From the IMG/VR virus record IMGVR_UViG_3300030333_006991: a stretch of 41,862 nt of DNA, one strand, 5' to 3'. Shown one piece after another: positions 1-37,676 of the stretch. Each line of letters starts with the position of its first letter. The first letter of the stretch is position 1. This DNA comes from an uncultured virus (IMG/VR IMGVR_UViG_3300030333_006991). Taxonomy: Duplodnaviria > Heunggongvirae > Uroviricota > Caudoviricetes. Under the pieces are notes generated by a model. The model did no database searches and was not told the origin of the DNA. It worked only from the letters and a program-made list of their open reading frames with translations. The position numbers and the translations under genes were made by a program.

Positions 1-681
1 AGCCGCAGGTTTGTATTGGAGATTGTGATACAACATTACCTCTTCGATATACCGTTCAACCTCGGCAGATTCCATTATAGGAACACTAAGTCCGAAATCT
101 CTCCTCAAGTAATCAGCCAAAAGAACAGATAATGCTTGACCTGTTCCTCCTGCTGAACGAATCGGACCTGCGAAGTTGATAGCAAGACATTTAGAACCGT
201 CTTTGTTTTTCAAGATGTGGCAATCCACAACGCCTTCCAAAGGAGCCACAAGAATCCCTTCCGTGACGACAGCCAAACCTGCACACACACCATGATATAT
301 GGCTACTCCAATATCAATATCCGTGCTATTCCCTTTTACATTGTTGAAGCGAACCTCTAAATCTTCCGCACTCAACGAGTAATCATCAACAATCGTTTCA
401 CGACAAACGAGCCGAGCGATGTCTATGGCGACTAATTCACGGTTGCCATCGTGTTTATCGTTCAAATGTCTAATTTGTTCAGCCGTTTGCCTCCCCTCTA
501 AGAACGAGAGTAATTGTTGAACACGGGAAGCCATATCTTTCGCTTGAGGTATTTCGACCCTCATTCTTGAATCGTGACCTTTTTTCCTACACGCTTCTGC
601 AAGAGTGTAAATATCATCCACATCACTTTGTAAACTATCCAAATAATCGGATTGTGAAGTAGACATAGAAACATTCGTCAT
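1..681 (-). CDS. polC: DNA polymerase D large subunit DP2 (PolD2), N-terminal ~227 aa; gene runs off the left edge
   Basis: Not in the ORF track; translated manually from ATG 681 (alt. 666): ...SQSDYLDSLQSDVDDIYTLAEACRKKGHDSRMRVEIPQAKDMASRVQQLL...GLAVVTEGILVAPLEGVV...INFAGPIRSAGGTGQALSVLLADYLRR...EVERYIEEV. AGPIRSAGGT and TEGxxxAPLEG are DP2 N-terminal signatures. Confidence 0.96.
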   Translation of the reverse strand, partial: MTNVSMSTSQSDYLDSLQSDVDDIYTLAEACRKKGHDSRMRVEIPQAKDMASRVQQLLSFLEGRQTAEQIRHLNDKHDGNRELVAIDIARLVCRETIVDDYSLSAEDLEVRFNNVKGNSTDIDIGVAIYHGVCAGLAVVTEGILVAPLEGVVDCHILKNKDGSKCLAINFAGPIRSAGGTGQALSVLLADYLRRDFGLSVPIMESAEVERYIEEVMLYHNLQYKPAA

Positions 682-705: not shown

Positions 706-1026
706 TTAATTCTGTCGTATCTCTACATTGTAACCATCTGAAAGCAGGATTTCTTTGGCTCTGCGGATTTGGTTGCCTTGAAGCACGATACAGTCGTCTT
801 TAATCGTCCCACCTGTTGCACATTTCGACTTCAATTTTTTAGCAATCTTTTTCATATCGCTACCTTTCTCAAATCCTTTTACGAGAGTAACCTTTTTGCC
901 GAATCTTCGGACTTCCGTAGAAACAAATAATCGAGAGGCTTCAACATTAAGTTGGTCAAGGATGTCGCCCATACTATCAGGCACAAAACTGTCTAAGTCG
1001 TCTTTCCAACTCATCGGCTCACACAC
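706..1026 (-). CDS. sui1: Translation initiation factor aIF1/SUI1 (YciH family)
   Basis: RRFGKKVTLVKG, KLKSKCATGGTIKD and IVLQGNQ match SUI1 motifs; start may be the ATG at 1014 (MSWKDD). Confidence 0.93.
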   Translation of the reverse strand: MCEPMSWKDDLDSFVPDSMGDILDQLNVEASRLFVSTEVRRFGKKVTLVKGFEKGSDMKKIAKKLKSKCATGGTIKDDCIVLQGNQIRRAKEILLSDGYNVEIRQN

Positions 1027-2555: not shown

Positions 2556-4382
2556 TTAATCTTTTGATTCAAGAGATTCCAAGAGAGCGTCACTAATTGT
2601 ATCACCATCACCTTCTGTAATCAACTTCTCAGAAGATAGATTCCATCCATCCGAGATTTCGTTAGTAATAGCAAAACTTGTTTGCTCAGGTGCTTCATCT
2701 GAACAAGTTATCCACACATCACCCACTTCTTGCAGATATTGTTTATCTTTCAATTCTCTCAGACAAGAGGTGACGGTATTTAGTTTCACCTTGAGTATCT
2801 GTGAGAGTGTGGCGGCATCTACCGCCCCTCTTTCTTTGACTTCCAAATAGATGCTACGCAAAAGAGGACTTAAATCAAGGTTCAAATCTTGAAGGTCGAA
2901 GTGGGCTGAGAGAGTTTTCAACGAATGAAGAACGGCTGAATAAGATTGTCGAATATCCTCGTTTGTAATTTCTACTCGACCATTCAAGCGAGCAAAAGAA
3001 CGACAAAGATTAGCAAACTCTGACCACTTACGATTATCAGGCATTCCTCTTGCGTGGAAAGCATCTTGAAACTCTTGTTTACTTTTCAGAGTATCGAATA
3101 CGGTTTTCACTAAACCGTAGGAGTCGTATACCTTCACAGGAAGTTTGGAAACATACCTCAAGTATTCTTTGAAAAAGGCTTGCCACAGTTTCAAATCTCC
3201 TTTGACGCCACCATAATCATCCATGTTTTTGATGATGATTTCATCAACTAAATCTTGTTTACTTTCTTCAGACAGTTTCAATTGGGTGTAGATTAAGGTT
3301 AAACGAGAGATGATTTGTGGGGTGTATCTTCCAAAGGCTTCCATCATTTCTCTTTTAGACGACTTACCTTCAGTGTAATTATGAGGAGGGTTTCCCATCA
3401 TCAAGATATTCACACAAGTCGGTTTGCGAATATCTAATTTTCCTTTTGTAAGTTGAACATAGCCGTTAGCCATAGCACCCAACATTTCACCAAAAACAGT
3501 ATCTTTCCATAATTGAAACTCCGAGATAGCCAATCTCTCGTTATTCATCTTGGGTAAAAGACCTACATCTACTGAACCTAAATCATCGCCCGACATAGCA
3601 CCTACTAAACCAGGTATTGTAGTCATCTGTCCTGAAGAGGCCACACCACAAGGAACAAGAGGTTGAATGACTTTTTCAACAAGAGTGTCCTTTCCTTCTC
3701 CATGCGAAGTAATGATACCTATGTGTATCAATTCATCTTTTTTGAATGGTGAAAGGCAAAACAATAAGATGGCTTTCTTGATGTAATCAGGAGCGTAAAA
3801 CTTATCCCACAAAGTATTCATCATTAAATCTAATGGAGTTATCTCAGCCTTCTTACACTTCCTCAAAAAGGTATCGAATTGTTTAGAGGTTAGATGAGAT
3901 TGTTTAGAATCTTCATCACAGGTGATAGTGTCTACAATAAATAGTCGCTTTGTTTTGTAGGATTGAAAACGACCTTTTACACGGAGCCTTTGACCGTCAT
4001 ACTGTGCCTGAGATAACAAATCAAGAGCGTTCTTGAATTGCTCAGGGTCATCCCAACCACCTTTCAGTTGTTTATCGGTTCCGTTATGAATAGCACAAGG
4101 AGCCGCTCTTTGACCGTCACCAATAGCAAACTCAACAATAACACTATCAGAAGGAGAAACAGGTTCGTTTTTCGTCTTCTTAGGTTTAGCCATAGGATTG
4201 ATAGACAACCTGATAACAAAGCCTGAACCTTCGACTTCTTCACCCGTTACAGACGACAAGAAAACTTCAGACATACCTTGTTCAAGAGTGGGAAAACCTT
4301 CGACCTGCTTTTCGACCCAATTCCGAATATCAGTAGGAATTTTGGCAGACATTTGGGAACCCTCAATTACATAGAGTGGCAT
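2556..4382 (-). CDS. mcm: Divergent MCM-family AAA+ helicase with C-terminal winged helix
   Basis: Colinear MCM motifs: HIGIITSHGEGKD (Walker A), SSGQMTTIPGL, GLLPKMNNERLAISEF (Walker B), GAMANGYVQLTKG, ILMMGNP (sensor 1), IISRLTL (Arg finger), RKWSEFANLCRSFARLNGRVEITNEDI (sensor 2). Start may be at MSAKIP (~4352). Confidence 0.82.
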   Translation of the reverse strand: MPLYVIEGSQMSAKIPTDIRNWVEKQVEGFPTLEQGMSEVFLSSVTGEEVEGSGFVIRLSINPMAKPKKTKNEPVSPSDSVIVEFAIGDGQRAAPCAIHNGTDKQLKGGWDDPEQFKNALDLLSQAQYDGQRLRVKGRFQSYKTKRLFIVDTITCDEDSKQSHLTSKQFDTFLRKCKKAEITPLDLMMNTLWDKFYAPDYIKKAILLFCLSPFKKDELIHIGIITSHGEGKDTLVEKVIQPLVPCGVASSGQMTTIPGLVGAMSGDDLGSVDVGLLPKMNNERLAISEFQLWKDTVFGEMLGAMANGYVQLTKGKLDIRKPTCVNILMMGNPPHNYTEGKSSKREMMEAFGRYTPQIISRLTLIYTQLKLSEESKQDLVDEIIIKNMDDYGGVKGDLKLWQAFFKEYLRYVSKLPVKVYDSYGLVKTVFDTLKSKQEFQDAFHARGMPDNRKWSEFANLCRSFARLNGRVEITNEDIRQSYSAVLHSLKTLSAHFDLQDLNLDLSPLLRSIYLEVKERGAVDAATLSQILKVKLNTVTSCLRELKDKQYLQEVGDVWITCSDEAPEQTSFAITNEISDGWNLSSEKLITEGDGDTISDALLESLESKD

Positions 4383-4466
4383 TCAGTATTTATTGGTATG
4401 GATTTTGAAAGGGAGATTTTACTTGGAAAAACGACCCCCTGCGAGGTGGAATAGTGTGTTGAAAAT

Positions 4467-4501
4467 AAAAAAAAGGTGAGGCTCCCTGTGAGAGCCCCAC
4501 C
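4467..4501 (-). terminator. Hairpin plus U-tract terminator-like element
   Basis: Minus strand reads GGTGGGGCTCT-CACAG-GGAGCCTCACC (11 bp stem with two G-U pairs) followed by T8. Confidence 0.7.
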
Positions 4502-4756
4502 AAAGTTGGTTCTTTTGTTGGTTGTTGCATACTTTTGGACATTCATCACAGGTTAGTGTCCTCAATGCGGTGGTTCACAGGGGTTTCCCCTCTGTTCACC
4601 ATAGGTTCCTCTTTGTTCTCACGCTGATTCGCCCTTAGGTGCTGATACCCACATATAGTGGATAAGAGTATCTTCTCATCTTAGGTGCTAATGGCTTCGC
4701 CAATGCTAATCCTAACCCTCATATAGAGGGTGTCCGATGAGGAGGGGTATGCCCTC
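4467..4756 (-). ncRNA. Putative structured non-coding RNA (or hairpin-rich origin) downstream of the SSB-like gene
   Basis: At least six stem-loops, including ACAG-A-GGG-GAAA-CCC-CTGT (GNRA loop on the minus strand), two TATAT-loop hairpins, a duplicated AGCACCTAAG and a terminal terminator hairpin; no credible ORF. Confidence 0.5.
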
Positions 4757-5261
4757 ACTCTTCAGCCACAACTTCCTGAAGTTGGTCTTCAGGAACAGGA
4801 GGGACTTCAACAGCCTCACCTGTGTTTGTGATTTGAAGGGACAGGACATTGTATTCATTTCCTGCCTTACTCATCTTCTTGTGACGGACAAATTCAATCT
4901 CAAGAGGGAAGGAAGCACCGTTGCCGATAGCCGCATCCACGGACTTCTTCAATCTTTCCTGCTCAAAAGTGTTGGAAACCCACCATGTAAGGCGTCTTCC
5001 GTCATCAAGGCGAGCAAGAGTTACAGCAGTAGAGTCGTTGTAACCCTTTTGGGAAGGAATGTCGTAGTTTGGTGTTCGGACAATAGCAAGGTTGTTGTAG
5101 TAGTGACCCATTTCCGCATCGAAGCGGTCAGTAACCACTCTCATTTGAGGGCGGTCACTCTTCTGTGCTTCCACTCTCTCAAGGAAAGCGGTTGCTTCGT
5201 CAGTCATTACTACGGGCTCTGCGTTTACATCATCATTCTTTGGCATTCTAATCATCTCCAT
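4755..5261 (-). CDS. Putative single-stranded DNA-binding protein (OB-fold-like, acidic tail)
   Basis: Beta-rich pattern with exposed aromatics (YYNN, TWWVS, IEFVRHKKMSKAGNEYNVL), acidic C-terminus (PEDQLQEVVAEE), next to MCM, strong BRE-TATA upstream. Confidence 0.5.
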   Translation of the reverse strand: MEMIRMPKNDDVNAEPVVMTDEATAFLERVEAQKSDRPQMRVVTDRFDAEMGHYYNNLAIVRTPNYDIPSQKGYNDSTAVTLARLDDGRRLTWWVSNTFEQERLKKSVDAAIGNGASFPLEIEFVRHKKMSKAGNEYNVLSLQITNTGEAVEVPPVPEDQLQEVVAEE

Positions 5262-5300
5262 TTTTGCGTTCTTCGCTAATCTTACCTTCTGCCAACTATG

Positions 5301-5313
5301 GTATAAACTTTCG
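5301..5313 (-). promoter_or_regulatory. Canonical archaeal BRE-TATA promoter (CGAAAGTTTATAC)
   Basis: About 40 nt upstream of the 5261 start; near-identical element at 35485-35500 and similar ones at 2528-2540 and 2224-2236. Confidence 0.7.
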
Positions 5314-5425
5314 CAATTGCTCTAAAGACAACTAAGTTATCTCTTATAGTTACGCCCGTGCGAGTGTGCGTGTTTTGGGTATCAGAGTAGAGTAGAGTTA
5401 AATACAGCGTAAGAGTAGTAGAAGT

Positions 5426-27608: not shown

Positions 27609-28886
27609 TCACCCTGCGAAATCTACACCTACTGAAGTCAAGTCATCTAATTTCACTACTGAAAGAATGGCGGGCTTCGGTTCAAAACCGACCATCCGTT
27701 GGAAGGAAGTTTGACCTTGCCATGTAGAAGACACCACCATTTGAACCCCTTGATATTGTTCAAGACAATGCCCATGTGTGTGACCCGTCACGAAAATTTC
27801 AGGAGTGTTTTCAATAGTCAAAAGGTCTTGAGGTTCCGAAGCGATTTGATTTTTCACACCCCATTGTGGTGCGAGATGTCTGCGTTTCAACATTTGTTTC
27901 ATGGCCTCTTCAGGATTCTCGTAAGTGGCTTCTTTGATATTCATTACCATATCATCAATACTTTTACCGTGATAAGATAAAGTGTCTACACCACCCAATG
28001 TAAACCGACAAGGATTTCCAACAAAGTGTCCTGCGTTGAAATAACTTTGCACTTCTTTCGACAAAACAGGTTGCGGTTCAGCGAGCCTAACTGCATCGTG
28101 GTTGCCAGGTAGAATTACAGGCTCTATATGTTCGGGGAGGTCTTCAAAATACTCTCCTGTGACTTTGTATTGGTCGTATAATCCATGTATTGCTAATTCT
28201 TCGTCTTGGTTAGGATAAACGCCTACACCATCTACAATATCTCCTGATACAACAAGATAACCAATACTTTGTGCAATCGGGTCATCCGACTTCAACCACT
28301 TCAACATCTTTTCCCATTCATCGGTTAGAAAGTTGTTCGCTCCGATGTGAACATCAGAAATGAAGGCGGCTGAAACAGGGTCTATACCCTCTGTGTCTCT
28401 TTCCTTCTCAATGATGTGTGGAAAAAGAGCGTGACGAATCCACATCAGACCTCCATCTTTGCTTAGGTTTCCTTCCACCGCAATAATATCATCAACGGCA
28501 ATCGTGCCAACTCTATCTTGAACATCGGGACTCACCATCGCATCTAATTCACCTGAAGGGTCTTCGATTACAAGGCGGAGATAACCTGATGCTGTTTTCT
28601 TGGCTTCGATTACCATTACAATTGCTCTCGCCTTTGAATCCCACTTACTGAATCTGCTTCTGTTATCACAAATCTCTTCAAGCGATTGAACCTTACCAAA
28701 GCCGTAAGAGTTTTGTAAGTATCTCCTTATTTTCGTGTATCGGTCTAAAAATAAATCTCTAAACGCTTCTAATTTTTCCGTGGCTTCAGTATCAGCACCG
28801 ATGGTTTGAATAATATCCACTTCAAGGTCATGCTCGGTAGCCTTTGCTTGAAATCTTTTATCCATACTATCACTACTGCCATTCAC
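27609..28886 (-). CDS. polB: DNA polymerase D small subunit DP1 (PolD1; 3'-5' proofreading exonuclease)
   Basis: OB region (IEDPSGE, DDIIAVEG) plus calcineurin-like motifs FISDVHIG, SGDIVDGVGVYPNQ, PGNHDAVRLAEPQP, SYHGKSIDD, RRHLAP, TGHTH, STWQGQTSFQ. Confidence 0.96.
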   Translation of the reverse strand: MNGSSDSMDKRFQAKATEHDLEVDIIQTIGADTEATEKLEAFRDLFLDRYTKIRRYLQNSYGFGKVQSLEEICDNRSRFSKWDSKARAIVMVIEAKKTASGYLRLVIEDPSGELDAMVSPDVQDRVGTIAVDDIIAVEGNLSKDGGLMWIRHALFPHIIEKERDTEGIDPVSAAFISDVHIGANNFLTDEWEKMLKWLKSDDPIAQSIGYLVVSGDIVDGVGVYPNQDEELAIHGLYDQYKVTGEYFEDLPEHIEPVILPGNHDAVRLAEPQPVLSKEVQSYFNAGHFVGNPCRFTLGGVDTLSYHGKSIDDMVMNIKEATYENPEEAMKQMLKRRHLAPQWGVKNQIASEPQDLLTIENTPEIFVTGHTHGHCLEQYQGVQMVVSSTWQGQTSFQRMVGFEPKPAILSVVKLDDLTSVGVDFAG

Positions 28887-36959: not shown

Positions 36960-37065
36960 ATTAAGCCACCACTATTCGATACTTCCGACACAACCTATAT
37001 GAATCATTGTTACACAAATGCACAACGGTTAAAATAGCAAGACGCACTATTCAAGGTGTGGTAGT

Positions 37066-37263
37066 ATGGCAGAGCAACCTGAGAATGGTGAAAAACCTAA
37101 GGAAAAGGTAGGTTCAAATGTTTACTTCCACCGCATGAATATTTGCGGAACCTGTCCTCAGATGAAAAGAGGAATTATGGTCAGCCGATGTGAGTTATGT
37201 GGTTGTGTTCTCGCTTTGAAAGCACGGATGAAAAATGAAAGTTGTCCATTGGGGAAGTGGTGA
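37066..37263 (+). CDS. Small Cys-rich protein (DUF6171-like)
   Basis: RMNICGTCP...CELCGC...KARM...CPLGKW. Confidence 0.75.
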   Translation: MAEQPENGEKPKEKVGSNVYFHRMNICGTCPQMKRGIMVSRCELCGCVLALKARMKNESCPLGKW

Positions 37264-37264
37264 T

Positions 37265-37378
37265 TTGACTCATCGCAATTGGGATGACCCCCCTGATATA
37301 TCGGAAACTGCCATACCTTTAGTAGTGATAATTGGGTTGGTGTGGGGTTTAAGTCACGCCATCGGCTTACTTATTTGA
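37265..37378 (+). CDS. 37-aa single-TM microprotein (not in ORF track)
   Basis: TTG start after GGTGA; MTHRNWDDPPDISETAIPLVVIIGLVWGLSHAIGLLI; fills the intergenic gap. Confidence 0.5.
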   Translation: MTHRNWDDPPDISETAIPLVVIIGLVWGLSHAIGLLI

Positions 37379-37418
37379 TTATCAGTAAATCCAAATAGTT
37401 TCACTGAGTAATGTAATT

Positions 37419-37676
37419 GTGACTGTTGATAAACCCTATCCTGACGAAGTTTGTTCCAATACAGATAAATTGGATTTACCGTCATGGTGTGTGGAAACTC
37501 CCGATTTCACAGCAGAAGTTTTTGGACAATTGTGTTTTGAGTTTGTATTTCTCTTCGGTTTATTCGCACTCATAAGGTGGAGATACAAATTATGGCAGGA
37601 AAAAAAGCATCGTATCAGAGAGGAGTGGCCTCCACGCTCACAGTTATCAATTCATCCACCCAATCAAGAGCGTTAG
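37419..37676 (+). CDS. Small single-TM protein
   Basis: LCFEFVFLFGLFALI followed by a basic tail. Confidence 0.55.
   Translation: MTVDKPYPDEVCSNTDKLDLPSWCVETPDFTAEVFGQLCFEFVFLFGLFALIRWRYKLWQEKKHRIREEWPPRSQLSIHPPNQER

Follow-up and report, generated by a model that had tools for sequence, protein, structure and literature searches.

A candidate structured RNA at the 3' end of an SSB-like gene in a probable marine archaeal virus

A non-coding element between two replication genes

The DNA analysed here, which we call the window, is the whole 41,862-nucleotide (nt) stretch of the uncultured virus record IMGVR_UViG_3300030333_006991. On its minus strand the gene for a plausibly SSB-like protein is followed by the gene for an MCM-like helicase, and between the two lies a non-coding spacer at 4383-4754, or from 4353 if MCM starts at the ATG at 4352. 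A conserved element on the minus strand, at 4467-4757, occupies this spacer and overlaps the stop codon of the upstream gene (4755-4757); the nhmmer profile of the closest relatives, termed lineage A below, spans 4756-4468 of the window. We propose that the element is probably a new, conserved, multi-domain structured RNA that makes up the 3'-terminal ~290 nt of the OB-fold/SSB-like gene transcript, and we think it very probable that it is a real functional RNA of the sense strand. The parts of the element and the genes around it are collected in Table 1.

An earlier note, made from the letters of the window alone, had described this place as dense in hairpins and had offered two readings of it, a minus-strand RNA co-transcribed with the SSB-like gene or a replication origin. 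Every feature that it listed can be found in the sequence: two hairpins with ATATA loops (H2a and the inner part of H3), the direct repeat CTTAGGTGCT with copies at 4634 and 4680, the pairing of CTCATC with GATGAG that forms helix P2, the minus-strand hairpin with a GAAA loop (P5), the GGACA/TGTCC stem (L1) and the terminal hairpin with its T8 tract.

Table 1. Features of the element, its flanking genes and other parts of the window named in the text.
Feature	Position	Strand	Remarks
Whole structured RNA element	4467-4757	-	from the upstream-gene stop codon to the end of the U8 tract
Upstream gene, 168 amino acids (aa)	4755-5261	-	open reading frame (ORF); its transcript would carry the element as 3' end
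Hairpin H1	4742-4756	-	GAGGG-CAUAC-CCCUC; overlaps the stop codon
5' domain	4675-4741	-	window's sub-lineage; P2 (CUCAUC 4736-4741 with GAUGAG 4675-4680) enclosing H2a and H2b
Hairpin H2a	4716-4730	-	loop UAUAU; inside P2
Hairpin H2b	4681-4715	-	inside P2
Hairpin H3	4644-4672	-	GAUAC...GUAUC around CCAC-UAUAU-GUGG (4649-4661)
Conserved motif AGCACCUAAG	4634-4643	-	includes CCUAAG (4634-4639), strand 1 of the receptor-like loop
Small hairpin GU-GAGA-AC	4615-4622	-	GNRA loop; within the receptor-closed loop
UAUGG	4599-4603	-	strand 2 of the receptor-like loop
Hairpin P5	4571-4601	-	GAAA tetraloop 4584-4587; followed by CCACC
3' domain	4527-4568	-	stem GCAU (4565-4568)/AUGC (4527-4530) around L1
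Hairpin L1	4537-4561	-	GGACA/TGTCC stem; loop includes CCUGUGA (4546-4552)
Unpaired linker	4502-4526	-	A/C-rich, G-poor
Terminal hairpin	4475-4501	-	10-bp stem, 7-nt loop UCACAGG (4485-4491)
U8 tract	4467-4474	-	likely transcription stop
Second small hairpin and T5	4427-4447	-	contains GGGGGUCGU
Conserved CCATACCAATAAATACTGA	4383-4401	-	candidate TATA-like MCM promoter; outside the RNA element
MCM-like helicase gene	2556-4382	-	downstream; Pfam MCM 1.9e-9
RNA contig X2	4520-5184		bridges upstream gene and element
RNA contig X4	4675-4876		bridges upstream gene and element
RNA contig X5	4626-4805		bridges upstream gene and element
RNA contig, run X1	4558-4769
PolD large subunit DP2, N-terminal part	1-681	-	Pfam 1.8e-53
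SUI1/eIF1-type translation initiation factor	706-1026	-	Pfam 3.4e-19
DP1-like small subunit	27609-28886	-	DNA_pol_E_B, Metallophos and OB domains

The element is non-coding. No reading frame stays open through it in any of the 18 sequences examined, and a protein-coding reading was rejected, as the small ORFs are not conserved in relatives. The earlier note had named conservation of the 60-aa ORF at 4367-4549 as a point against its proposal, and this peptide is not kept: L003 matches it in two pieces, aa 1-31 and 41-60, with an insertion between them, L004 is 56% identical across 41 aa, and beyond these two loci there are matches of 10 residues only.

Part of the region 3900-5300 is present in six RNA-library runs, and we examined the contigs of four. 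The element is joined to the upstream gene in these contigs. Three runs from two studies have contigs that span the stop codon and reach more than 31 bases beyond it in both directions, and together the contigs cover 4512-4769 and extend into the upstream gene. In run X2 the contig that holds gene and element has a depth of 28.7 and the sole MCM piece a depth of 3; these depths are compatible with termination before MCM, although genes cannot be ranked by the depth of contigs. The unpaired linker is where the contigs of the two studies stop, at 4520 and 4512, which is a weak hint at best. The stretch 4155-4511, terminal hairpin included, is uncovered by the RNA contigs of the four runs and, since contigs lose low-coverage ends, no firm conclusion on the 3' end follows from this gap. 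A variant strain is the source of the X2 and X4 contigs, which carry 4589 C>T together with 4582 G>A (plus-strand letters), and these two changes turn the P5 pair G4589-C4582 into A-U.

Conservation and folding on the sense strand

We compared 35 loci, 34 from metagenomes and one from IMG/VR (L001), with flanks of ~2.5 kb. The order OB-fold/SSB-like gene, spacer, MCM is found in 31 of them, the other four being cut contigs, and the spacer ranges from 149 to 576 nt. By identity of their MCM to that of the window the loci fall into lineage A (82-100%; seven distinct spacers, of which one equals that of the window), lineage B (~73%; 11 complete spacers, with L020 and the partial L011 as further members) and lineage C (56-60%; nine distinct spacers). 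MCM relatives are numerous in ocean metagenomes (257 proteins at E ≤0.001), and IMG/VR gave a single one, the 43% relative L001. A search of IMG/VR with the conserved-motif pattern returned no match, the phage collection contained nothing similar at the DNA level and a single distant MCM match, and no MCM relative carrying the search peptides was present in the GTDB species genomes.

The element is kept in lineages A and B. Lineage A sequences can be aligned from the stop codon to the terminal hairpin, and the DNA beyond this hairpin is not alignable. Both lineages share the motifs CACCUA, GGUG, GGAAAC and CCACC in the same order; CACCUA and GGAAAC are present in 19 of 19 sequences, and AGCACCUAA, GGUG, GGAAAC and CCACC are invariant, with flanking proteins that are only 65-74% identical across the lineages. 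The conserved core consists of the central and 3' parts of the element, the 5' domain outside H2a being variable among sub-lineages. A covariance model of the lineage B core gave its best matches outside that lineage at the syntenic place in L003 (18.3 bits, E 0.025) and in the window (4566-4659 on the minus strand, 14.9 bits, E 0.15). It found nothing in the rest of lineage A (A2/A3) or in lineage C, and no second copy of the element in the 41.9-kb window or in the loci with their ~2.5-kb flanks.

The element folds on the sense strand. The earlier note had proposed comparing its folding energy with that of shuffled sequences, and the minus-strand RNA does better than these, at -95 kcal/mol against -78.4 ± 5.0 (z -3.32; 0 of 100 shuffles as good). 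The plus strand gave a z of -2.43, with 2 of 100 shuffles as good. The sense fold was also the better one in the three other sequences tested, with sense and antisense z of -5.23 and -2.64 in L018 (lineage B), -3.86 and -2.55 in L006 (lineage A) and -4.90 and -1.66 in L025 (lineage C). For the lineage B alignment RNAalifold gave -103.1 kcal/mol in the forward direction and -71.5 for the reverse complement, and the forward pairs include 155 G-U cells against 5 A-C cells.

Covariation, another test that the note had suggested, is seen in the relatives. The curated structure counted for lineage B has 96 pairs over 11 sequences. Pairing holds in 96.0% of its cells, 21 pairs are changed on both sides against 9.0 in shuffles (reached by 0 of 500), and covariation scores 0.203, where shuffles give 0.127 (0 of 500) and slid controls 0.03-0.05. 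In lineage A, with seven sequences and 44 pairs, pairing holds in 94.2% of cells, covariation scores 0.231 against 0.115 in shuffles and 23 cells are changed on both sides against 11.3 (0 of 500 in both cases). Helices are thus preserved through compensatory and G-U changes in two lineages.

Such changes can be followed in single helices. In lineage A one column pair of H1 (12:23) is U-A in four sequences and G-C in three, one column pair of P5 (210:228) is G-C in four and A-U in three, and two of the six pairs of H2a are altered on both sides with all cells paired. The L1 stem forms in all seven lineage A sequences, the stems differing in sequence and the loop being identical. H1 has an alternative register, in which UGAGG (4753-4757) pairs with CCUCA (4738-4742). 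At its place lineage B has a hairpin of another sequence, with UUCCU/AGGAA in L016 and UUGCU/AGCAA in the others, and at the place of H3 it has CCCACU...UAUAUUAGUGGG, immediately before AGCACCUAA. The small GAGA-loop hairpin recurs as GC-GAGA-GC in L004, UUGCU-GAGA-AGUGA in L005 and CUCC-GAGA-GGA in L006. A second copy of AGCACCUAAG, at 4680-4689, is limited to the closest relatives.

In lineage C (L022-L035) a spacer of ~230-250 nt lies at the same place, for example at 2179-2425 in L025, and has no detectable similarity to the element. It holds a long covarying helix and, as the values for L025 show, folds on the sense strand. Although this spacer is a sense-strand structure, we do not claim lineage C as a member of the RNA family.

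The DNA between the terminal hairpin and MCM differs among the loci. Four relatives carry a tRNA-Ala(UGC) gene there (L005 2309-2382, L006 2332-2405, L007 2312-2385 and L021 2295-2368), and L001 has a tRNA-Ala gene nearby on the opposite strand. The window is without this gene and keeps GGGGGTCGT (4431-4439), which is similar to the first bases of the tRNA and suggests that the tRNA was deleted in the window's sub-lineage; GGGGGUCGU, in the second small hairpin, likewise resembles the opening bases of the tRNA-Ala gene. In L003, the closest relative with 97% MCM identity, an insertion of ~200 nt follows the terminal hairpin (~2225-2450) and contains a 49-codon ORF that is missing from the window.

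Loop-loop pairing, the GAAA tetraloop and known RNA families

The 3' end of the element appears to be tied together by two complementary loops. In all seven lineage A sequences the L1 loop includes CCUGUGA, to which UCACAGG, the 7-nt loop of the terminal hairpin, is fully complementary. The terminal loop is invariant in these seven, and five of the ten pairs of its stem are altered on both sides. The lineage B pair is CCUACAA/UUGUAGG, so that between the lineages three kissing positions change on both sides with complementarity kept, and 10 of the 13 lineage B loci have perfect pairs. By local folding, both partners fall in hairpin loops in every one of the seven lineage A sequences, as they do wherever the pair is present in lineage B. 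A complement of the terminal loop arises upstream by chance in 6-30 of 500 shuffles per sequence. When partners of the terminal loop were sought by an unbiased duplex scan, the L1 loop ranked first in four of seven lineage A sequences and in 10 of 12 from lineage B; a further CCUGUGA, carried by the 3' strand of P5 in the window's sub-lineage, outscores it there (-14.2 kcal/mol). At the level of sequence, then, both the placement in loops and the complementarity maintained through change point to a kissing-loop interaction. The contact with L1 would explain why the loop of a terminator-like hairpin is conserved, and it would make this hairpin part of the fold.

Viewed as a terminator-like site (4501-4475), the terminal hairpin has 12 pairs, eight of them G-C, and is followed by TTTTTTTT. 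This is a G+C-rich hairpin directly before a T run on the transcribed strand, as in an intrinsic terminator, and the U8 tract is likely to be the transcription stop. Hairpin and T run also occur in L003, L004, L006, L007, L021 and L016, the T run being weak in L005 and most of lineage B. The element resembles intrinsic terminators and the small RNAs of 3' untranslated regions in ending with a G+C-rich hairpin and a U tract and in coming from the 3' end of a coding transcript. Unlike these it has ~260 more structured bases with tertiary-type motifs, and the loop of its terminator is conserved and complementary to an upstream loop.

The tip of P5 reads GGAAAC in 19 of 19 sequences, a GAAA tetraloop that is closed by G-C in the window. 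Beside it lies the pattern CCUAAG...UAUGG, which occurs once in the window (4599-4639, minus strand) and fits the consensus of the 11-nt tetraloop receptor as given in PMC2615604, CCUAaG/UAaGG. Its flanks are complementary, with CACC (4637-4640) opposite GGUG (4597-4600) and GG (4632-4633) opposite CC (4604-4605). The inner helix covaries across the lineages (GG:CC, GGGA:UCCU, GGGAUU:AAUCCU, ACCG:CGGU and AGCCGU:ACGGCU), and the outer helix CACC:GGUG never varies. Lineage A varies at the two lower-case positions of the consensus (A/C in strand 1, U/A/C in strand 2), L004 being the exception, and all highly conserved receptor positions are kept in six of its seven sequences. In lineage B the closing pair of the receptor-like loop is deviant. 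Judged from the letters, the element would thus place a GAAA tetraloop beside a canonical 11-nt-receptor sequence.

Modules of a GAAA tetraloop and its 11-nt receptor are described for large folded RNAs such as group I and group II introns and RNase P (PMC2615604, PMC2275092). The window shares with them the G-C-closed GAAA loop and CCUAAG...UAUGG with complementary flanks. It differs in having neither an intron or RNase P core nor an Rfam match, in the competition of its receptor helix with the base of the tetraloop hairpin, and in the closing pair of lineage B.

A search with Rfam 15, whose families include riboswitches, ribozymes, pRNA, GOLLD, ROOL and IMES, C/D and H/ACA sRNAs, T-boxes and introns, gave no match at the gathering score in the whole window. 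Within 4300-4850 only two Rfam matches appeared at E ≤10; they lie on the opposite strand and are noise, at 14 bits where the gathering scores are 279 and 40. In seven relatives a search at E ≤5 returned only tRNA genes and two unrelated weak matches elsewhere. ARAGORN found no tRNA or tmRNA gene in the window. We also considered a K-turn or archaeal C/D box, formed by GUGAUGA of the L1 loop with UUGAG, and rejected it: GUGAUGA is GUGAUAA or GUGACAA in relatives, the strand opposite UGA is AAAAGU with no in-register G-A/A-G, there is no D box at the right distance, and no Rfam C/D family matches the element.

Possible roles, neighbouring genes and carrier

Of the two readings in the earlier note, the minus-strand RNA co-transcribed with the SSB-like gene has held up, through covariation, sense-strand folding, the excess of G-U pairs and the bridging contigs, and the origin has lost ground. 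Transcription from the upstream gene would cross the element and stop at U8, and the RNA would fold compactly, with loop-loop pairing tying the terminal hairpin to the 3' domain. Such a fold could define the 3' end of the upstream message, which is abundant, and make this end resistant to nucleases, and it could separate the message from MCM, which has a promoter-like motif of its own. Locking the 3' end and insulating the downstream gene may be the main role of the element, a suggestion that we make tentatively. The invariant single-stranded and tertiary motifs suggest that the folded body may also bind a partner, be it a protein, a ligand or another copy of itself.

Several observations weigh against this reading. 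Sequence profiles show no homology between lineages A and B, and the covariance model links the two weakly and through the window's sub-lineage only. Two of the five whole-structure measures in lineage A are no better than shuffles, namely the pairs changed on both sides (9 against 7.5, reached by 119 of 500 shuffles) and the further pair types (16 against 16.0, 315 of 500). The most conserved helices, which are the receptor helix, the base of P5, GCAU:AUGC and the kissing pair within each lineage, never vary and therefore give no covariation signal. Loop pairing is not universal, since L016 is without an evident kissing pair, the pair of L013 is bulged and that of L020 is matched at six of seven positions. 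The bare pattern CCUAAG...UAUGG is expected 0.36 times per window and is present in 30 of 100 shuffles, and the base of P5, where GGUG pairs with CACC/ACCA, needs the very GGUG that the receptor helix uses, so that the two are mutually exclusive. It is for this chance frequency and this competition, together with the invariant outer helix and the closing pair of lineage B, that we call the motif receptor-like. The RNA evidence consists of assembled contigs without strand, ends or expression level, in which DNA carry-over is possible. Stability, insulation and partner binding, finally, are functions that we infer.

It is also conceivable, though rather unlikely, that the element works as a free-standing or processed RNA in trans, possibly assembling with itself into dimers or rings for replication, packaging or counter-defence. 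The two complementary loops and the GAAA/receptor pair would then connect separate molecules, in the manner of the interlocking loops of phage phi29 pRNA. Its loops keep their complementarity while they differ by lineage, and in the phi29-family pRNA too the loop sequences differ among related viruses with complementarity kept. The GAAA loop is few pairs away from its candidate receptor, which would make docking within one molecule geometrically awkward, and the invariant unpaired motifs suggest a partner. The tRNA gene beside the element in relatives recalls ROOL and GOLLD, large phage RNAs that often lie beside tRNA genes. However, the structure begins at the stop codon and so leaves no room for a separate promoter, the RNA contigs join element and upstream gene at similar contig depths, and a linker of 25-50 nt permits the loops to pair within one molecule. 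Compared with pRNA, the element is likewise a virus-encoded structured RNA of a few hundred bases or less whose complementary loops diverge together. It differs in a loop complementarity of 7 bp where pRNA has 4 bp, in giving no match to the pRNA covariance model (nothing at E ≤10 in 4300-4850), in lying at the 3' end of a protein gene without its own promoter, and in a probably archaeal host with no packaging genes seen nearby. With GOLLD, ROOL and IMES it has in common that it is a large, conserved and intricate RNA from environmental sequence, with a tRNA gene alongside in some relatives; unlike these it is smaller, at ~290-350 nt, and is part of an mRNA 3' end, and it matches none of their Rfam models, either in the window at the gathering score or in the seven relatives at E 5. 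That it should be the first large, tertiary-structured, self-assembling RNA of marine archaeal viruses, forming dimers or rings like those of phi29 pRNA or the multimeric particles of ROOL and GOLLD, with an assembly that works together with the OB-fold protein and MCM, seems to us a long shot.

We judge it improbable that the element is a cis-regulatory sensor, similar to a riboswitch or to HK022 put-like antitermination, that gates passage into MCM and, in relatives, the tRNA gene. A large structured RNA directly upstream of a strong terminator-like site and MCM would suit such a role, as would the conserved choice of GGUG between two mutually exclusive partners, CACC upstream and CCACC downstream. 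For the terminal loop, too, there is an upstream loop to pair with, and a still better partner in the P5 CCUGUGA of the window's sub-lineage. Yet the 25-nt unstructured linker before the terminal hairpin leaves no evident overlapping antiterminator, MCM has its own promoter-like motif, and variable insertions (the tRNA gene, the 49-codon ORF) separate terminator and MCM. The host is probably archaeal, and termination in archaea relies on U tracts rather than hairpins. None of the known aptamer families matches the element.

The replication origin of the earlier note, a DNA-level function with hairpins and repeats as initiator-binding or unwinding sites, is very unlikely. In archaeal origins an A+T-rich unwinding element next to a replication gene is surrounded by ORB repeats, and the element studied here does adjoin the gene for a replicative helicase, contains direct and inverted repeats as well as hairpins, and falls in the 1-kb bin (4001-5000) of the cumulative GC-skew minimum. 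This minimum, however, tracks the switch of gene direction at 5262-5425, outside the element, and G+C of 0.45-0.51 over 4400-4799 (window ~41-42%, 1-kb bins 0.38-0.45) leaves no A+T-rich unwinding stretch. The repeats are not conserved: AGCACCUAAG is single-copy in three of seven lineage A and 11 of 12 lineage B sequences, L018 alone having a second CACCUA, far upstream. The G-U pairs through which helices are kept (155 cells, against 5 of A-C) would turn into A-C mismatches if the opposite strand were read, and stems that change with pairing kept are expected of RNA and not of protein-binding repeats; on the RNA contigs, the element is also transcribed. Should there be an origin nearby, the element is a poorer candidate than the divergent spacer of 165 nt at 5262-5425, which separates the upstream gene from a glycosyltransferase-like gene and has TATAAA and short repeats of GAGTA.

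A hairpin-rich spacer with no function beyond its terminator is scarcely credible: only the terminal hairpin and U8 have an obvious role, the 5' domain differs among sub-lineages and lineage C has a spacer of no detectable similarity, but motifs stay invariant across lineages whose flanking proteins have diverged, covariation exceeds controls, the terminal hairpin conserves its loop and not its stem, and the lineage C spacer is itself structured on the sense strand only.

A structured RNA at the 3' end of the upstream message, as we favour, combines known RNA building blocks in a new family, in archaeal viruses. To our knowledge structured non-coding RNAs of archaeal viruses are almost unknown. 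In the open-access literature we found no paper pairing the terms magrovirus and noncoding, subscription journals and preprint supplements lying outside this search. The candidate, of ~290-350 nt, brings together covarying helices, a covarying loop-loop contact at a terminator hairpin, and a tetraloop with a receptor-like motif; replication genes flank it on both sides, metatranscriptomes contain it, and it is found again in many ocean samples. It could offer RNA structural biology a tractable new fold, and a handle on the control of gene expression or replication in abundant viruses that cannot yet be cultured.

The upstream protein probably has 163 aa, counted from the ATG at 5246, and its Atlas form starts at residue 6. 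It matches no Pfam or PHROG family. An AlphaFold2 model from 19 sequences has a mean pLDDT of 78.4, and its top Foldseek matches are the OB folds of RPA70N, PrgE and SSB (E 0.016-0.1, TM 0.26-0.36); the Atlas lead is Phi29-SSB, with 40% of one cluster and a score of 0.92. The label SSB-like, taken from the earlier note, is plausible on this OB-fold-like model, with the Foldseek E-values lending it little weight.

For the MCM-like helicase the 598-aa form, which begins at ATG 4352, is found in the database at 100% identity, and an in-frame stop after ATG 4382 in lineage B makes ATG 4352 the probable start. The promoter-like CCATACCAATAAATACTGA is conserved in lineage A, and lineage B has CTAAATACTG; elsewhere in the window CCATACCAATAAATACTGA shows no excess, with seven matches at up to two mismatches against 6.97 expected. 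A conserved motif, TAAATACTG, lies ~30-40 nt before the MCM start, and AAATAACAAACC, which precedes it, is doubled in four loci of lineage B.

The window encodes PolD, MCM and SUI1, and its host is therefore probably archaeal. It also encodes weak Hjc-like and primase-like proteins, phage-type nucleases, a dNMP kinase and many ORFs without a family. An Atlas search with a 501-aa neighbour, aimed at the choice between virus and cell, returned nothing. The carrier is probably an uncultured marine archaeal virus or other mobile element. Magroviruses are described as having PolB, genomes of 90-100 kb and 31.5% G+C (PMC10768690; PMC5434244), and we rejected a typical magrovirus as carrier, given the PolD and the ~42% G+C of the window. 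For a virus-like element to carry PolD would be unusual; PolB is the polymerase of the magroviruses described to date.

The earlier note had called the spacer beside MCM by far the largest intergenic region of the window, which needs correction. The 655 nt at 36960-37614, between MarR-like and primase-like genes, likewise lack an ORF of 100 aa or more, their ORFs being small (≤85 aa). GC skew is positive over this stretch, which may hold small plus-strand genes or another non-coding element.

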